A DNA stretch of 51,209 nt from Escherichia phage BubbaBully. Numbering within the stretch: position 1 is the first letter of the stretch; each line of letters opens with the position of its first letter. A program made the translations under genes and the position numbers. The stretch lies in the sequence record OR896831.1; one strand, written 5' to 3'. This document shows, in pieces, positions 25,254 through 41,994 of the stretch. Under the pieces are notes generated by a model, which worked only from the letters and a program-made list of their open reading frames with translations, made no database searches and was not told the origin of the DNA.

Positions 25254-27392
25254 TTACTGCAACGCTTTGATTAGCAATTTAAGATCTTCAATCTCTGCTT
25301 TCAGGTTGTCGATCTCCTCTTGTTGCTTGTTAACTATCTCCTTTTGCTCTTTGAATGCGTTAACCAAAAGTGCAACAACGCCGTTATAGTTAACACCTTT
25401 AATTGCCTCTCCTTTTGGATCTGGCTCTCCATCGTTATTCAAAGAATGAACCGCTTCCGGTAAAACTCTTTCAACATCTTGCGCTATCAGTCCAGCCTCA
25501 ATACTATAAACGCTGTTTTCATCTTCAATCAGATTGTTTCGTTTGTAGTAAGTGTAACCAGTTAGATAGTCAATTTTGTCGGATGCCGTTTCGATCTCTT
25601 TTAGATTTGCTTTCATCCTTATGTCAGATGTGCTAACCCATTGGTTACAAACTGCACCTCCAGCGTTATTGAAAATGAAGTCTGCACCCTTTACATAAAG
25701 GTGAGTTTCAGCGCCGCCAGCAGACCAGTTAACACAATCCAATCCGGTGATCCAATCGTGACCCCAATGAACAGCCTTAAAAATACTTATTGCAGCATCA
25801 TGTGACGGAATTTCGCACAAAACACCAGTCGCCCTATCACGCCAAGCTGAAAAACTACCAGCTTGCAACTTACCACCAATAAAAAATGAACCAGAACCAG
25901 TCCTAGTACCTTCAACATACGCAAAGCGAGTGTTTTCCGGCGCATATGATGTAATTGGCTTGTATGCCGCAAGTTGCTCTGGAGTCCACGCTATAATATT
26001 TTGACCGTCAGAAACAGCCTGGATAACTCCGTCACTACTCCACCTTAAACCGCTATCGCTATCGCCAATCGCAATCGCATTTGCACCAAGCACATGATCA
26101 GACATGCCTATAGCTAGAGATGAAAAGTTTGAAAGATATCCGCGCTCATCTATCTGCAAATAACTATTACCCCCTCCAGGCCTGAATGTATGAATTGTTG
26201 TTTTAGACAACCCACCTTTGATCTCGTTATAAATTCTAGAGTTTGAAACATCGTTTCCGTTTGCATGTCTATTTGTAAGGTAAATTAAACCAGAGTTAGC
26301 ACCATTCTTTTCAATAAGATGCACGCCCCTAAAAACAGGAATATCAGCCTCACCAATGCCAAAATTGTTTCTTGCTTGACTTATGTTTGTTGCACCAGTT
26401 CCGCCCTGTTGAACACCAAGAGGAATAAACTGTTGCGATGCGGTATTCCAGTAACCCCAACCATCGTTACCAACTGTAAGGTATTTGATCTTATCCGGCG
26501 AATGAATAAACGTTTCACCATCGCCCTGATTAAATCGGTCAACCTTCAACGCCTCCCTTGCAAGGTCTTTGTTTGCAAGATCATTAAGGTTTTGATCTTT
26601 ATGCAGAAGATTTTCAGGCTGTACCTGTTGCACCAATTGGCGAGCTTCATCACGCGCAGTTTCAGCACCAGACTTTGCGTTATTGGCATCAGCGGCATGA
26701 TTTCCAGCCGCATCACGCGCCAATTCAGCCTGATCGCGAGCGCCGAAAGCCTCTTGCTTAATGGCTTCCGTTTCGGTTACGGCTGAATCTTTAATCTGTT
26801 CTGTTTGCGCCTTTATTGCGTCAGTATCTGCCTTAATCTGGTTTGTTTCAGCGACAGCAGAATCCTTTATCTGTTCTGTTTGCGCCTTTATTGCGTCAGT
26901 ATCTGCCTTAATCTGGTTTGTTTCAGCGACAGCAGAATCCTTTATCTGTTGAGTGTCGTTTTTAAGTTGTTCAGTTGCAGCGAGATTGGCGGCTGTTTTT
27001 TCTGCATCACCTTTAACCTGGTTAACCAAATCCTGCAAAGCTTTCAGGTCAAAGTTTTTGAAAAATTCAATAGCTTCCTCGATCTGAGTCTCTTTGCTTT
27101 GATAGTAGCGCAGAGTTTCCGCAACATCTTGCGCGAGGCCATCAACCGTGATTGAGTCATGCAGCAAAATGATGTAATTGCTTCGCCCAATTTCAGCGCC
27201 GCCAGTTGTGATGGCGCGGATTTGTGTGTCACTGATAACTTCACTGATCACAGCCGCTTGAAAAGGAGCATCAATAAAAAAGATTGTTGCACCAGGGCGG
27301 ATTAGTGAAAGTTGCTCACGCCATTTTGTATCATATCCGGTGATGTATCCTTGAGCGTCCATAGACGCTTGACCCTTGCGGTAAATAGCCAT
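25254..27392 (-). CDS. tail fibre protein with C-terminal intramolecular chaperone (peptidase S74-like)
   Basis: 712 aa; C-terminal SDIRMK...YNGVVALLVNAFKEQ chaperone-type segment; internal 25-aa tandem repeats. Confidence 0.8.
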   Translation of the reverse strand: MAIYRKGQASMDAQGYITGYDTKWREQLSLIRPGATIFFIDAPFQAAVISEVISDTQIRAITTGGAEIGRSNYIILLHDSITVDGLAQDVAETLRYYQSKETQIEEAIEFFKNFDLKALQDLVNQVKGDAEKTAANLAATEQLKNDTQQIKDSAVAETNQIKADTDAIKAQTEQIKDSAVAETNQIKADTDAIKAQTEQIKDSAVTETEAIKQEAFGARDQAELARDAAGNHAADANNAKSGAETARDEARQLVQQVQPENLLHKDQNLNDLANKDLAREALKVDRFNQGDGETFIHSPDKIKYLTVGNDGWGYWNTASQQFIPLGVQQGGTGATNISQARNNFGIGEADIPVFRGVHLIEKNGANSGLIYLTNRHANGNDVSNSRIYNEIKGGLSKTTIHTFRPGGGNSYLQIDERGYLSNFSSLAIGMSDHVLGANAIAIGDSDSGLRWSSDGVIQAVSDGQNIIAWTPEQLAAYKPITSYAPENTRFAYVEGTRTGSGSFFIGGKLQAGSFSAWRDRATGVLCEIPSHDAAISIFKAVHWGHDWITGLDCVNWSAGGAETHLYVKGADFIFNNAGGAVCNQWVSTSDIRMKANLKEIETASDKIDYLTGYTYYKRNNLIEDENSVYSIEAGLIAQDVERVLPEAVHSLNNDGEPDPKGEAIKGVNYNGVVALLVNAFKEQKEIVNKQQEEIDNLKAEIEDLKLLIKALQ
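26782..26949. repeat. 75-bp tandem direct repeat (about 2.2 copies) inside tail fibre gene
   Basis: Near-identical 75-nt units in phase with the reading frame, encoding TEQIKDSAVAETNQIKADTDAIKAQ repeats. Confidence 0.8.
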
Positions 27393-32315: not shown

Positions 32316-33062
32316 ATGGCTAAAGACATTCTGGATAACTCAACAATCGACGGTATCGAGCAGGTTGATGAAATGGACTTTCACGAATTGCAGCACGGAA
32401 AATATTCAGATATAGCTCTGCGTTCGGGTGGTCATTACCAGGCCGTGAAGCCTTGCCAGTATTACAAGGTTACAGGCAACCGCTATGCTGGGAGCAAAAC
32501 TCCAGATGTTGTCCGTGACCTTTGGGCTACACCTCGCGATGTTGTTGCGTACATGGAGGAGCGCTACGGAAAATATGACCTTGACGCAGCAGCCAGCGAG
32601 GATAATAAGGTATGTGACAAATTCTACAGCAAGGAAACAAACTGCTTAAAGCGCTGGTGGGGAAGTAAAAAGCACGTATGGTTGAATCCTCCATACAGCA
32701 ATCCAGATCCGTTTGTGCTAAAGGCAATTGAGCAGATGGAGCACGATAATCAGATCGATATCTTGCTTGCAGCCGACAACTCAACAGCATGGTTTAGCGA
32801 CGCGCAGAAACACGCGGCGGAAATTATCTGGATCACTGGCGAAACCTGGAAAGATGAAGATGGGCGCGAGTATTCGCGAACCGGACGCCTAGCGTTTATT
32901 TCCGGTCTGACAGGTGAGCCAGTTAGCGGCAACAATAAAGGCAGCGTCATTTTCGTCATGCGCAAATTGAAAGAGGGCGAAACGCAACAAACTCACTACG
33001 TGAAAATCAGCGATATTTGCCCGTCAGTTAAAAACAAACGAGCCAAAGCAAGGAGCTTTTAA
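32316..33062 (+). CDS. dam: DNA N6-adenine methyltransferase (Dam-like)
   Basis: 248 aa with NPPY motif (WLNPPYS) characteristic of N6-adenine methyltransferases. Confidence 0.75.
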   Translation: MAKDILDNSTIDGIEQVDEMDFHELQHGKYSDIALRSGGHYQAVKPCQYYKVTGNRYAGSKTPDVVRDLWATPRDVVAYMEERYGKYDLDAAASEDNKVCDKFYSKETNCLKRWWGSKKHVWLNPPYSNPDPFVLKAIEQMEHDNQIDILLAADNSTAWFSDAQKHAAEIIWITGETWKDEDGREYSRTGRLAFISGLTGEPVSGNNKGSVIFVMRKLKEGETQQTHYVKISDICPSVKNKRAKARSF

Positions 33063-34038: not shown

Positions 34039-35157
34039 ATGATTCAGAAAATGACAGACCAGCAGTTTAAAGAAGCACGAGCAGAGGGCAAAACCTACAA
34101 GCAGATCGCGGAGGAGTTCGGCTTGAATGTTCGCACCGTTGAGCGCCGCGCGGCACGACTTGCCCGCCAAGGTGAAACTAACACGAAAGGCGCACCAGGT
34201 TTTGCGGTTGTTCGTGAGTCAGTCCTGACCCGCGCAAACGGCGAAGAAGTGATGCGCTGGACTATCACCAACAAAGATAAAGAGCAGTTGGAAGCGCTCA
34301 TGCAAGCCGCGATGGAGGCATTCGCTGAGGAAGTGCCACGCCTTGAGCCTCAGCCGGAAAGCCACAAAGACTACAGCGAAAGCCTTGCGCTATATCCGAT
34401 CTTTGATATGCACATTGGTGCAATGGCTCATAAGCACGAGTGCGGCGAGAATTGGGACACGGCAACCGCCGAGAAGGTCATGAATGACTTCTTTGATTAT
34501 GCTGTAGAGTGTGCGCCAAACAGCGAAAAGGCTGTGCTCCTGATTGGTGGCGATATGCTTCACAGTGACGGCCTTGAGGCTGTAACACCTGCTAGCGGTC
34601 ACGTTCTTGATCAGGATAGCCGCTATGCCAAACTGGTTTATGTCGCAATCCGAGCTACTCGTCGCGCTATCTCCTTGATGTTGACCAAACACAAAGAGAT
34701 TGAGGTTCAGGTTATCGAGGGCAATCATGACCAGTCAGGGATGATCTGGCTACGCGCAGCAATGGCGGCGGCATACGAGAACGAGCCACGCGTGACGGTT
34801 GATGTTTCTCCTCGCGTAGTGCATCACACGCAGTACGGAAAAACCTTCCTTGCTTATCACCACGGGCACACTGTGCGCAAGCCGGAGGCGTTGTTGATGA
34901 TGTGCGCGTCGGATTGGCGAGAGGACTTCGGGATCTCAAAATCAATGTATGCTCACGTTGGACATTGGCATCACCAGACCGTAACAGAAACCAGCCTGGG
35001 GATTGTTGAAGTTCACAGCACAATGGCGGCTAAAGATGCATATGCAGCTCGCGGAGGTTGGCGCTCTCGTCGTCGCGCGGCGGTTATCATCTACGACAAA
35101 GAGCACGGCGAGATCGGGCGCTTCATGTTCTACCCTGAAATGATGGAGTCAAAATAA
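34039..35157 (+). CDS. metallophosphoesterase (calcineurin-like) with N-terminal HTH-like region
   Basis: 372 aa; motifs DMH, GGDMLHSD, GNHD, HHGH; N-terminal KTYKQIAEEFGLNVRTVERR resembles an HTH. Confidence 0.65.
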   Translation: MIQKMTDQQFKEARAEGKTYKQIAEEFGLNVRTVERRAARLARQGETNTKGAPGFAVVRESVLTRANGEEVMRWTITNKDKEQLEALMQAAMEAFAEEVPRLEPQPESHKDYSESLALYPIFDMHIGAMAHKHECGENWDTATAEKVMNDFFDYAVECAPNSEKAVLLIGGDMLHSDGLEAVTPASGHVLDQDSRYAKLVYVAIRATRRAISLMLTKHKEIEVQVIEGNHDQSGMIWLRAAMAAAYENEPRVTVDVSPRVVHHTQYGKTFLAYHHGHTVRKPEALLMMCASDWREDFGISKSMYAHVGHWHHQTVTETSLGIVEVHSTMAAKDAYAARGGWRSRRRAAVIIYDKEHGEIGRFMFYPEMMESK

Positions 35158-38693: not shown

Positions 38694-38737
38694 ATTATAG
38701 GTCAACCATCTTACAGCCTTTTAGCAATTCGTGCTAT
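38694..38737 (-). promoter_or_regulatory. box promoter (box + 22 bp + TATAAT in hairpin loop)
   Basis: Box 38719-38737 overlaps TAG stop of upstream gene; TATAAT 38694-38699 in loop of GGTTGACC/GGTCAACC. Confidence 0.55.
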
Positions 38738-38979
38738 TTTAAACGTTCAACTTTTGCAAGCAATCTTCCATCTACAATGCTATGGCACTCAAGAGTTTCT
38801 GGATCGAAGTCTAGCGATCGATGGAATGAGTGACCAATCAGCAGATATCCGCCGCGCTGCCTTACCTGATAAACCGTTTCTCCTACTGAGAAAAGCGATA
38901 TGTCGCTAAACGTCACACGGAATCGGTTTTGAGCCATGCTCTTTGGAATGTGTTTTGTGTACTCTACGCCTTGAATCAT
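38734..38979 (-). CDS. hypothetical protein
   Basis: 81-aa ORF, ATGA overlap with upstream gene. Confidence 0.5.
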   Translation of the reverse strand: MIQGVEYTKHIPKSMAQNRFRVTFSDISLFSVGETVYQVRQRGGYLLIGHSFHRSLDFDPETLECHSIVDGRLLAKVERLK

Positions 38980-39553: not shown

Positions 39554-39597
39554 ATAATAGCGGATCTTATCGACCCGCTTTTAACAAAAAGTGCTAT
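39554..39597 (-). promoter_or_regulatory. box promoter (box + hairpin + TATTAT)
   Basis: Box 39579-39597 (- strand), stem AGCGG/CCGCT, -10 at 39554-39559. Confidence 0.55.
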
Positions 39598-39681
39598 TTA
39601 CAGAAAGGGCATGAGCTTTTATCTCCACTCCCTCCGTGGTGAGGGCAGCAAATTTTTTCGATTGGTGTCATGTTGTTCTCC

Positions 39682-40395
39682 TTATTTTGAATTAGCCAGC
39701 CATACAGCAATCGCCAGGCCGCGTGGAGTTAGTGAGCGAATCAGTTTTGTTCTCTCTGATTTGCCGCCTAATTTCTTCCAGCCTGGATTGTCGTTTCCTA
39801 CTGGATCAACTGGTAGCGGTTCAGGCATTACAAATCCGTTTCCCGTCCAAAGACATGTATTCTTATTGTATGCGTCGCTCGCCGGAATAATGTCAGGGAA
39901 GGCTGGGTGCGCCTCGTCTTTCAAATGAATGTAGCCGCCATAGTCGCACGGATGGAATTTGTGATCCGGCTTGCGCCATAGCGTTGACAGCTTGCCTACA
40001 GGGTTTTCGATCATGTACGGAGCGCCAAAATGATCAGCAATCTCCGCCGCAATCTTGCAGGTAGCTGCCGCTTTAACCTGGAAATCTGGATCGATCTCAG
40101 CTTTGCGCTTCCAGTGGCGCGAGCCTGAGTTTGCCAGGTCTGTACATGGAGGAAACGCCATAACAAAATCAGGCTTACCCCAAAGCAGGTTACATGCGCT
40201 CACCTTGAAATCGTCGTCAATCCATGCGTTAACATAGCGAATGTTGGGATGCGTTACGCGCACTGATTGGTACGAGCCGTGATCACCTTCATCGGCATTG
40301 AAACAGATAACCTTGTAACCAGCTTTAGCCCACGGCAGCGCCGCGTAGCCGGAACCGTCGAACATTGAGAAAACAAGACCTTTGATGTTGTTCAT
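39682..40395 (-). CDS. compact C5-cytosine methyltransferase-like protein
   Basis: 237 aa; motif I-like FDGSGYAALPWAKAG, PC motif FPPCTDLANSG, ENV-like motif ENPVG; no obvious target-recognition domain. Confidence 0.5.
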   Translation of the reverse strand: MNNIKGLVFSMFDGSGYAALPWAKAGYKVICFNADEGDHGSYQSVRVTHPNIRYVNAWIDDDFKVSACNLLWGKPDFVMAFPPCTDLANSGSRHWKRKAEIDPDFQVKAAATCKIAAEIADHFGAPYMIENPVGKLSTLWRKPDHKFHPCDYGGYIHLKDEAHPAFPDIIPASDAYNKNTCLWTGNGFVMPEPLPVDPVGNDNPGWKKLGGKSERTKLIRSLTPRGLAIAVWLANSK

Positions 40396-40405
40396 TTCTT
40401 AATCC

Positions 40406-40630
40406 TCAGAATGGGAAGCAACGATTGCAAGCTGGATCAAATTCACAGCCGCAGTCATTCACAATCATTGTTGGATCAGCAAACGCCGCGCCGCTCTCCA
40501 TATCCATATCCATATCGCCAAGCGCCTCGTCAAGCGTGCGCAGTTTATAAGCAACCTCAAGCGCTGCCTCTTTGTTCAGTCCAGCAGCTTCCGCCTCTTG
40601 CAGACGGGCAAAGAAACCATCTTGTGACAC
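40406..40630 (-). CDS. small acidic protein with C-terminal Cys cluster
   Basis: 74 aa ending NDCGCEFDPACNRCFPF. Confidence 0.45.
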   Translation of the reverse strand: MSQDGFFARLQEAEAAGLNKEAALEVAYKLRTLDEALGDMDMDMESGAAFADPTMIVNDCGCEFDPACNRCFPF

Positions 40631-40946: not shown

Positions 40947-40990
40947 ACTATACCAGGCCGCAGCGCCGGAGTTTTAACAAAAAGTGCTAT
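40947..40990 (-). promoter_or_regulatory. box promoter (box + 22 bp + TG-n-TATAGT in hairpin loop)
   Basis: Box 40972-40990; TATAGT at 40947-40952 within GGCGCT/AGCGCC hairpin. Confidence 0.55.
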
Positions 40991-41068
40991 CAGTTCCAGA
41001 ATGAGTGGCGGGGCGCACGTTTACCATCACCGCCGTAGTGGTCATTGGAAACAGCAATCATCCAGGCG

Positions 41069-41872: not shown

Positions 41873-41916
41873 ATTATGCCGAAATCAGATCAGTCTGTTT
41901 TAGCAAAAAGTGCTAT
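41873..41916 (-). promoter_or_regulatory. box promoter (box + 22 bp + CATAAT) driving the leftward accessory block
   Basis: Box 41898-41916; -10 at 41873-41878; CA-rich leader. Confidence 0.55.
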
Positions 41917-41994
41917 TTAATCGGTAGTCAGTGATTTTGATGATTGCTTGACCAGTTTTGTAAGGTTGTTTTTGATGCCCGTCAACTTTTGTGT

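Follow-up and report, generated by a model that had tools for sequence, protein, structure and literature searches.

A compact Dcm-like cytosine methyltransferase gene in Escherichia phage BubbaBully, and its candidate target site

The gene, its motifs and its relatives

The gene described here lies at positions 39682..40395, on the minus strand, of Escherichia phage BubbaBully (sequence record OR896831.1; the whole stretch analysed, 51,209 nucleotides long, is referred to below as the window). Sequence, structural model and analogy with a studied orthologue together make it very likely that the gene encodes an active DNA C5-methyltransferase of a compact, 'Dcm-like' phage family (PHROG 757). 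The open reading frame (ORF) listing gives an ATG start, a stop codon and a product of 237 aa, the last as had been stated in a preliminary description of the window made from the sequence alone; the frame cannot be extended beyond 237 aa. A Shine-Dalgarno sequence, GAGGA (40403..40407, minus strand), can be read 7 nt 5' of the ATG, where it overlaps the TGA of an upstream 74-aa ORF (40406-40630). The gene sits in a leftward block of ORFs that runs from 41874 down to 37088.

The preliminary description had also named three methyltransferase motifs in the product, and these are found at residues 12-26, 81-91 and 130-134; 103 residues follow the last of them (about 100 had been estimated). Conservation was assessed in a set of 66 diverse family members (35-74% identity to the window protein) and, for motif I, in 25 close homologues. 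Motif I (FDGSGYAALPWAKAG, residues 12-26; 40318..40362, minus strand; assigned by alignment and conservation) consists of the S-adenosylmethionine (AdoMet)-binding loop FDGSG and the helix that comes next. The loop (residues 12-16) comes directly after a predicted strand at residues 7-11, conforms to the FxGxG pattern, and contains G14, S15 and G16, all three of which are invariant in the close homologues; the region aligns with motif I of M.HaeIII, DNMT3B and Escherichia coli Dcm. Motif IV (FPPCTDLANSG, residues 81-91; 40123..40155, minus strand) carries the Pro-Cys pair as PPC at residues 82-84, with the catalytic Cys84 encoded at 40144-40146 and invariant in all 66 members. Motif VI (ENPVG, residues 130-134; 39994..40008, minus strand) was assigned by the conservation of Glu130: within ENPV (residues 130-133), E130 is invariant, and N131 and P132 are nearly so. 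Glu130 is expected to be the residue that protonates cytosine N3. Since Cys84 and Glu130 are invariant in 66 proteins of only 35-74% identity, the motif pattern is not a product of chance.

The remainder of the protein follows the usual order less literally. The canonical motif VIII, QxRxR, is not present in the window protein; the equivalent strand reads Y176-N-K178-N-T-C-L-W, within a motif VIII-like segment (YNKNTCLWTGNGF, residues 176-188; 39832..39870, minus strand) that was assigned by conservation and by a model strand at residues 180-185. Y176 and W183 are invariant and K178 and T180 nearly invariant in the 66 members, and a Lys probably takes the place of the motif VIII Arg. Next comes a variable segment (residues 189-214; 39754..39831, minus strand) at the place of the target-recognition domain (TRD) and motif IX. 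Model confidence is lowest in this segment, and family members differ here more than anywhere else, the segment falling into several length and sequence classes (DNPGW, GYSxQH, FFWGW and long-insert types). The C-terminal part, RTKLIRSLTP plus the helix RGLAIAVWLAN (residues 215-235; 39691..39753, minus strand), is defined by conservation and by model helices at residues 214-220 and 225-235. R220, S221, P224, G226 and A230 are nearly invariant in the homologue alignments, and on this basis, together with the model, we infer that the segment is the motif X equivalent. Other residues that are invariant among the 66 members are P149 and P191.

A full-length match (residues 4-236, E=2.1e-83) places the protein in PHROG 757, 'DNA methyltransferase'. 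The Pfam C5-methyltransferase search that had been proposed in the preliminary description as a check was run, and returned PF00145 below threshold (10.7 bits against a cut-off of 22, E=0.34, residues 8-94 only); used as a check, it would wrongly reject a correct idea. Scanned singly against PF00145, 3/66 family members reach E<=0.01, and the family is therefore outside the detection range of Pfam. An NCBIfam search of the window protein gave no match. When the family profile was searched against the sequences in the PDB, only M.HaeIII was recovered (E=0.096, motifs I-IV), and the C-terminal 64 residues match no PDB sequence even at E<=10.

The family is large: clustering at 90% identity yields 2978 clusters, and at 50% there are 2072 representatives (212 with E<1e-30), and tblastn finds it in 1499 of 50,697 phage records. 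The latter include Drexlerviridae, large rV5-like myoviruses, phages of ~44 kb such as GeorgBuechner, and phages of Campylobacter, Vibrio and Arthrobacter. The homologues listed are mostly 210-260 aa long and match end to end; compactness is thus a family trait, rather than a truncation in this phage. By megablast, the region belongs with the T1-like phages (Drexlerviridae, Tempevirinae, genus Henuseptimavirus), the closest records being Enterobacter phage N5822 (91%), IsaakIselin (90%), JohannLBurckhardt (89%) and Henu7 (89%).

The gene is already known in these relatives, under the names 'Dcm-like C5 cytosine methyltransferase', 'DNA-cytosine methylase', 'DNA cytosine methyltransferase' and 'DNA methyltransferase', and is an ordinary, standard accessory gene of T1-like phages. 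The IsaakIselin (Bas10) gene bas10_0052, with ~94% protein identity, and the JohannLBurckhardt gene, which was matched at the DNA level only (89%), both carry the first of these names; the Henu7 'DNA-cytosine methylase' likewise shows ~94% protein identity to the window protein. IsaakIselin is annotated with an upstream start, giving 258 aa, whereas in the window a stop codon closes that start. The orthologues of IsaakIselin and KarlJaspers both follow a DUF3987 helicase block, as does the window gene. In the Braunvirinae, the Dcm-like gene (JeanPiccard bas02_0026; 25499-26188 of locus L121) adjoins the tail-tip J/lipoprotein region instead, indicating that the methyltransferase gene moves as a cassette within the family.

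A catalytic domain without a separate target-recognition domain

An AlphaFold2 model was built from an input that included 25 homologues, and has a mean predicted local distance difference test score (pLDDT) of 88.5 and a predicted template modelling score (pTM) of 0.88. As modelled, the protein has the catalytic-domain fold of C5 cytosine DNA methyltransferases. Foldseek matches it to DNMT3A/B (E about 1e-6), and its nearest neighbours in the viral structure library BFVD are phage 'DNA-cytosine methylases'. Seven strands are predicted (residues 7-11, 28-32, 52-55, 77-80, 127-131, 145-147 and 180-185), which we read as the core strands bearing motifs I, II, III, IV, VI, VII and VIII.

The model differs from the canonical architecture beyond the last of these strands. 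Here it consists of a 20-residue loop, two short helices (206-209 and 214-220) and a final helix (225-235). At most 39 residues (186-224) separate the last core strand from the C-terminal helix, at a place where canonical C5-methyltransferases carry a small domain of 80-100 residues and motif IX. The variable loop has the lowest pLDDT of the model (63-76), and segment 189-214 contains a single helix, of four residues. A separate TRD and motif IX between motifs VIII and X are hence not present in the model, which bears out the preliminary description on the missing recognition domain.

The catalytic domains of DNMT3A and DNMT3B (for example, PDB 6u8p and 6f57) share 16-18% identity with the window protein, but are ~50 residues longer and include a TRD loop and motif IX; DNMT3 moreover reads CpG and works in DNMT3L/DNMT3 oligomers, which are no part of the evidence from the window. 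With E. coli Dcm and M.EcoRII (CCWGG, 472-477 aa) the window enzyme would share the chemistry and probably the target, although it is half their size, with neither their N-terminal extension nor their TRD. Orthology with E. coli K-12 Dcm was considered and rejected: hhalign aligns residues 7-138 of the family profile with Dcm 88-232 (pairwise E=0.029), that is, over motifs I-VI only, and 'Dcm-like' is therefore a functional label rather than a statement of orthology.

The compact module also occurs within much larger proteins. Two BFVD entries of 1,100-1,400 aa from uncultured Caudovirales, A0A6J5SE15 and A0A6J5NPY6, contain it as a fusion (Foldseek E 1e-10 to 2e-9, TM about 0.65); one of the two has a helicase/UvrB annotation at its N-terminus, and the other is uncharacterised.

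A studied orthologue, and the retention of CCWGG sites

The catalytic activity of the family can be approached through phage K42, the genome of which is 95.4% identical to that of KarlJaspers (Bas06) (bioRxiv 10.1101/2023.08.16.553469; this preprint, which is the source of the K42 results given here, has since appeared as Wang et al., Cell Rep 2024;43:114857). All four of four K42 mutants that escape retron Ec86 disrupt a 711-bp dcm gene, and expression of K42 Dcm is toxic only with Ec86 in the cell. By LC-MS (mass spectrometry coupled to liquid chromatography), 5-methylcytosine (5mC) in the multicopy single-stranded DNA (msDNA) of the retron is high with K42 Dcm, but not with the C82A/E128A/K175A/K176A mutant. 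Supplied alone from a plasmid, K42 Dcm increased 5mC and set off Ec86. Defence was lost once the CCTGG of the msDNA hairpin had been altered to AATGG, ACTGG or CATGG. A Dcm of this kind is encoded by 34 of 35 Ec86-sensitive phages, and the host Dcm of dcm+ MG1655 did not trigger Ec86 (bioRxiv 10.1101/2023.08.16.553469).

The corresponding KarlJaspers gene, bas06_0055 (711 bp, 236 aa), which like that of IsaakIselin bears the annotation 'Dcm-like C5 cytosine methyltransferase', is 68% identical to the window protein over its full length. K42/KarlJaspers Dcm and the window protein belong to the same family, occupy the same genomic position, and are of near-equal length (236 and 237 aa). C82, E128 and K175 of the K42-type Dcm align with C84, E130 and K178 of the window protein, which are invariant or nearly so in the 66 members. 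Nonetheless, 32% of residues differ: the second mutated Lys, K176, corresponds to Asn179 in the window protein, and the variable loop of the latter (PVGNDNPGW) is two residues shorter than that of K42/KarlJaspers (KEDDKDNPGW). The first of two options raised in the preliminary description, a minimal C5 DNA methyltransferase, accordingly gains support from the fold, the invariant Cys and Glu, and the 5mC produced by a 68%-identical orthologue.

The LC-MS result also bears on the chemical group transferred. A phage carboxymethyltransferase, CmoX, which uses carboxy-SAM to generate 5-carboxymethylcytosine, is a close structural match, and the window protein could by analogy catalyse a transfer other than that of methyl. 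CmoX candidates are defined by SPPC, by Arg in place of the motif-X Asn, and by a phage cmoA (often also cmoY) nearby (PMC12783734). The window protein has FPPC rather than SPPC; its Arg220 probably misses the critical position narrowly, falling by helix register one residue before the motif-X Asn position in the alignment that we infer. No cmoA/cmoY-like gene was seen among ten larger non-structural window ORFs scanned, or among the annotated relatives. With the orthologue yielding 5mC, a CmoX-like activity is highly improbable.

Whether a methyltransferase of this type protects a particular site can be examined in the genomes that carry it. In the window, CCWGG is not avoided (115 observed, 117 expected), and neither is GATC (303 observed, 307 expected). 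Other GC-rich palindromes are strongly avoided: GGWCC is absent (expected 26-86, Markov or zero-order), CCSGG occurs 4 times (expected 22-79, Markov or zero-order), GGNCC twice, RCCGGY not at all and CTGCAG once, and GGCC is found 62 times against ~157 expected. GCGC and GCNGC counts are at or above expectation.

For a comparison between phages, we assembled 37 loci, taking the neighbouring helicase gene as anchor and adding T1, Rtp, JeanPiccard and BrunoManser; L031 and L037, whose contigs stop short of the methyltransferase position, do not enter the CCWGG comparison. Where the methyltransferase gene is intact, the CCWGG observed/expected ratio is 0.82-1.37 in 31 of 31 related loci, while the six loci without a functional gene have ratios of 0.00, 0.04, 0.05, 0.05, 0.67 and 0.83 (Mann-Whitney p=9e-7, a value that ignores shared ancestry, there being about three independent lineages). 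When 90 palindromic motifs were compared in the same way, CCWGG was the one to differ most between intact loci (1.17) and three loci with decayed genes (0.03).

These three decayed copies (L036 8392-8991, L038 11806-12586 and L039 12549-13358) contain frameshifts, internal stops and an insertion of ~45 codons; the third locus contains duplicated gene fragments as well. CCWGG has been nearly lost in the first and third and lost in the second, with 1, 0 and 1 sites, in that order, versus 21-28 expected. BrunoManser, in which Dam is present and no copy of the methyltransferase was found in the 33.6 kb examined, has 2 CCWGG sites against 40 expected, and has kept GATC. The mirror case is provided by Rtp and JeanPiccard: Rtp has no Dam-type gene in the 24 kb examined and 40 GATC sites versus 110 expected, and JeanPiccard no Dam-type gene in 30 kb and 43 versus 131. 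That GATC is depleted in the absence of Dam (Rtp) and kept in Dam-encoding relatives supports the logic applied to CCWGG.

The link between gene integrity and CCWGG retention is new here, and points to protection of CCWGG. It constitutes independent genomic support for a specificity that had previously been assumed. It also joins several lines of evidence on the nature of the substrate. An enzyme that acts on RNA (for example, generating m5C in tRNA, as Dnmt2 does), or a catalytically inert regulatory remnant, is most improbable here: DNA C5-methyltransferases score higher in the comparisons, the orthologue modifies DNA, and decay of the gene is accompanied by the loss of a DNA motif. The invariance of the catalytic Cys and Glu across the family speaks against an inert protein in particular.

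A number of points weigh against the assignment of the window protein as a DNA C5-methyltransferase, or against CCWGG as its target. In the database searches described above, PF00145 remained below threshold and NCBIfam gave no match; past motif VI, no solved methyltransferase shows recognisable sequence similarity to the protein. The experiments concern the K42 orthologue rather than the window protein; moreover, in that work CCWGG was assumed from the name Dcm, the sites being unmapped (bioRxiv 10.1101/2023.08.16.553469), and the msDNA mutations at CCTGG could equally disturb effector binding. Since Ec86 is not set off by the Dcm of MG1655, some difference must exist between the phage and host enzymes, perhaps in which position is methylated, in the form of the substrate, or in dose. 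T1 (0.83) and Rtp (0.67) lack the gene and still keep most of their CCWGG sites. Conversely, many environmental phages with intact homologues (41-50% identity) are CCWGG-poor, and so site preference is not uniform across the wider family. The class of the variable loop gave no clean pattern with CCWGG retention in 80 IMG/VR loci: GYSxQH loops occur in CCWGG-rich and CCWGG-poor phages. Finally, Drexlerviridae abundantly encode N6-adenine and C5-cytosine methyltransferases that are thought to counter restriction, and yet the BASEL study found no simple correlation between methyltransferase genes and restriction phenotype in this family (PMC8594841).

Some of these observations would be accounted for by an active DNA C5-methyltransferase whose site is not, or not only, CCWGG: its site may be shorter or less strict, it may modify the outer cytosine, or it may prefer single-stranded or hairpin DNA. 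An enzyme with no TRD in its model could behave in this way, which would fit the triggering of Ec86 by the phage enzyme and not by MG1655 Dcm, the intact homologues in CCWGG-depleted environmental phages, and the absence of a simple link to restriction phenotype in BASEL. Against it, CCWGG alone of the 90 motifs is retained in step with gene integrity among close relatives, and the single changes to ACTGG and CATGG in the msDNA were each sufficient to abolish defence. We regard a different or additional site as rather unlikely, if to be taken seriously, and lean, with some reserve, towards CCWGG as the target and an anti-restriction role for the gene.

Genomic setting and a proposed mode of action

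A second methyltransferase gene in the window, at 32316..33062 on the plus strand, encodes a companion Dam-type N6-adenine enzyme; its identity, which had been proposed earlier, is confirmed by Pfam PF05869 (E=2.3e-61).

The leftward block that contains the C5-methyltransferase gene is punctuated by a recurrent 19-nt box, ATAGCACTTTTTGYTAAAA. Four copies lie on the minus strand, within 38719-38740, 39579-39600, 40972-40993 and 41898-41919, and each is followed by 22 nt, by a TATAAT-like hexamer and, further on, by GAGGA ahead of a start codon. The copy ahead of the methyltransferase unit, ATAGCACTTTTTGTTAAAA (40972-40990), forms together with its 22-nt spacer and a TATAGT hexamer (40947-40952) a putative leftward promoter (40947..40990, minus strand). 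The unit below it consists of ORF 40915-40685, ORF 40630-40406, the methyltransferase gene and a 25-aa ORF. The next box copy (39579-39600) abuts a terminator-like hairpin (39559-39579), and the two (39559..39600, minus strand) would mark where the methyltransferase unit gives way to the next one. The recurrent box at the head of the unit had been called a promoter in the preliminary description; the box itself stands, and its promoter activity is put forward here as probable only, because a 22-nt spacing is non-canonical for sigma-70. When the window was scanned with the sigma-70 consensus, promoter-like sites were fewer than in shuffled sequence, and the box elements went undetected. Also encoded in the window is a 372-aa protein (34039-35157), in which Pfam recognises a helix-turn-helix of sigma-70 region 4 (PF08281, 27.9 bits). 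This protein might read the box.

The 25-aa ORF (MTPIEKICCPHHGGSGDKSSCPFCK; 39594..39671, minus strand) is unannotated and rich in Cys and His. It begins 10 nt past the methyltransferase stop codon and has its own AAGGAG. Related loci that have kept it number at least 10; of the 14-24 nucleotide differences between copies, 11-16 are at codon position 3. The ORF always adjoins the methyltransferase gene: downstream in window-like phages, and upstream in Stevie-like and HCF1-like phages. In IsaakIselin, it falls in a 72-bp unannotated gap. The Cys/His pattern of its predicted product suggests a zinc knuckle.

An enzyme without a TRD might depend on a partner for target recognition, and this micro-protein, encoded by an ORF that is under purifying selection and adjoins the methyltransferase gene in two gene orders, is a candidate. 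There is precedent in the split C5-methyltransferases M.AquI and M.EcoHK31I, in which, as in the window protein, a short polypeptide carries motifs I-VIII; in these enzymes, motifs IX-X have to come from a second polypeptide. Unlike them, the window protein has a motif-X-like helix in the same chain. Dependence on a partner is disfavoured because K42 Dcm, supplied alone, works, and because no micro-ORF was found in 21 kb of KarlJaspers, the genome of which is 95.4% identical to that of K42. Furthermore, the micro-ORF is absent beside most family members. We therefore think it improbable that a partner is required.

Our proposal for the window protein is thus an active, stand-alone DNA C5-methyltransferase, and its mode of action may be pictured as follows. 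The gene would be transcribed leftward together with small accessory genes. Its product is predicted to have kept the full seven-stranded catalytic domain and lost the separate TRD and motif IX, in place of which are about 26-39 residues. The target cytosine would be flipped from the helix and attacked at C6 by Cys84, with Glu130 assisting; the methyl group would come from AdoMet, bound by FDGSG and the C-terminal RSLTP helix, and the enzyme would be freed by beta-elimination. In this way CCWGG would be methylated on phage DNA and, incidentally, on host DNA too, shielding ~115 CCWGG sites from EcoRII-type restriction in parallel with the action of Dam at GATC. The presumed cost is that the same activity is sensed by retron Ec86 (Eco1), the msDNA hairpin of which carries a CCTGG site.

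How a site could be read in the absence of a recognition domain is a matter for more tentative proposals. The reading could fall to the variable loop (189-214) and to strongly conserved loops lying between motifs VI and VIII (WRKPD, HPxFP and DAYxK). It is conceivable, though less likely than not, that CCWGG is read by the ~25-residue variable loop together with these catalytic-domain loops, perhaps with a dimer on the palindrome. If true, this would be a TRD-free mode of recognition that is not represented among solved C5-methyltransferases, and might explain why the phage enzyme, and not host Dcm, methylates the protein-bound Ec86 msDNA hairpin.

The family is among the smallest of the C5-methyltransferases and offers an appealing minimal scaffold, for structural studies or for engineering. 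Because it escapes both Pfam and NCBIfam, annotation pipelines that rely on these resources label such genes hypothetical. For the phage itself, two phenotypes are predicted: its 115 CCWGG sites would be protected from EcoRII-type enzymes, and it would be sensitive to retron Ec86/Eco1.

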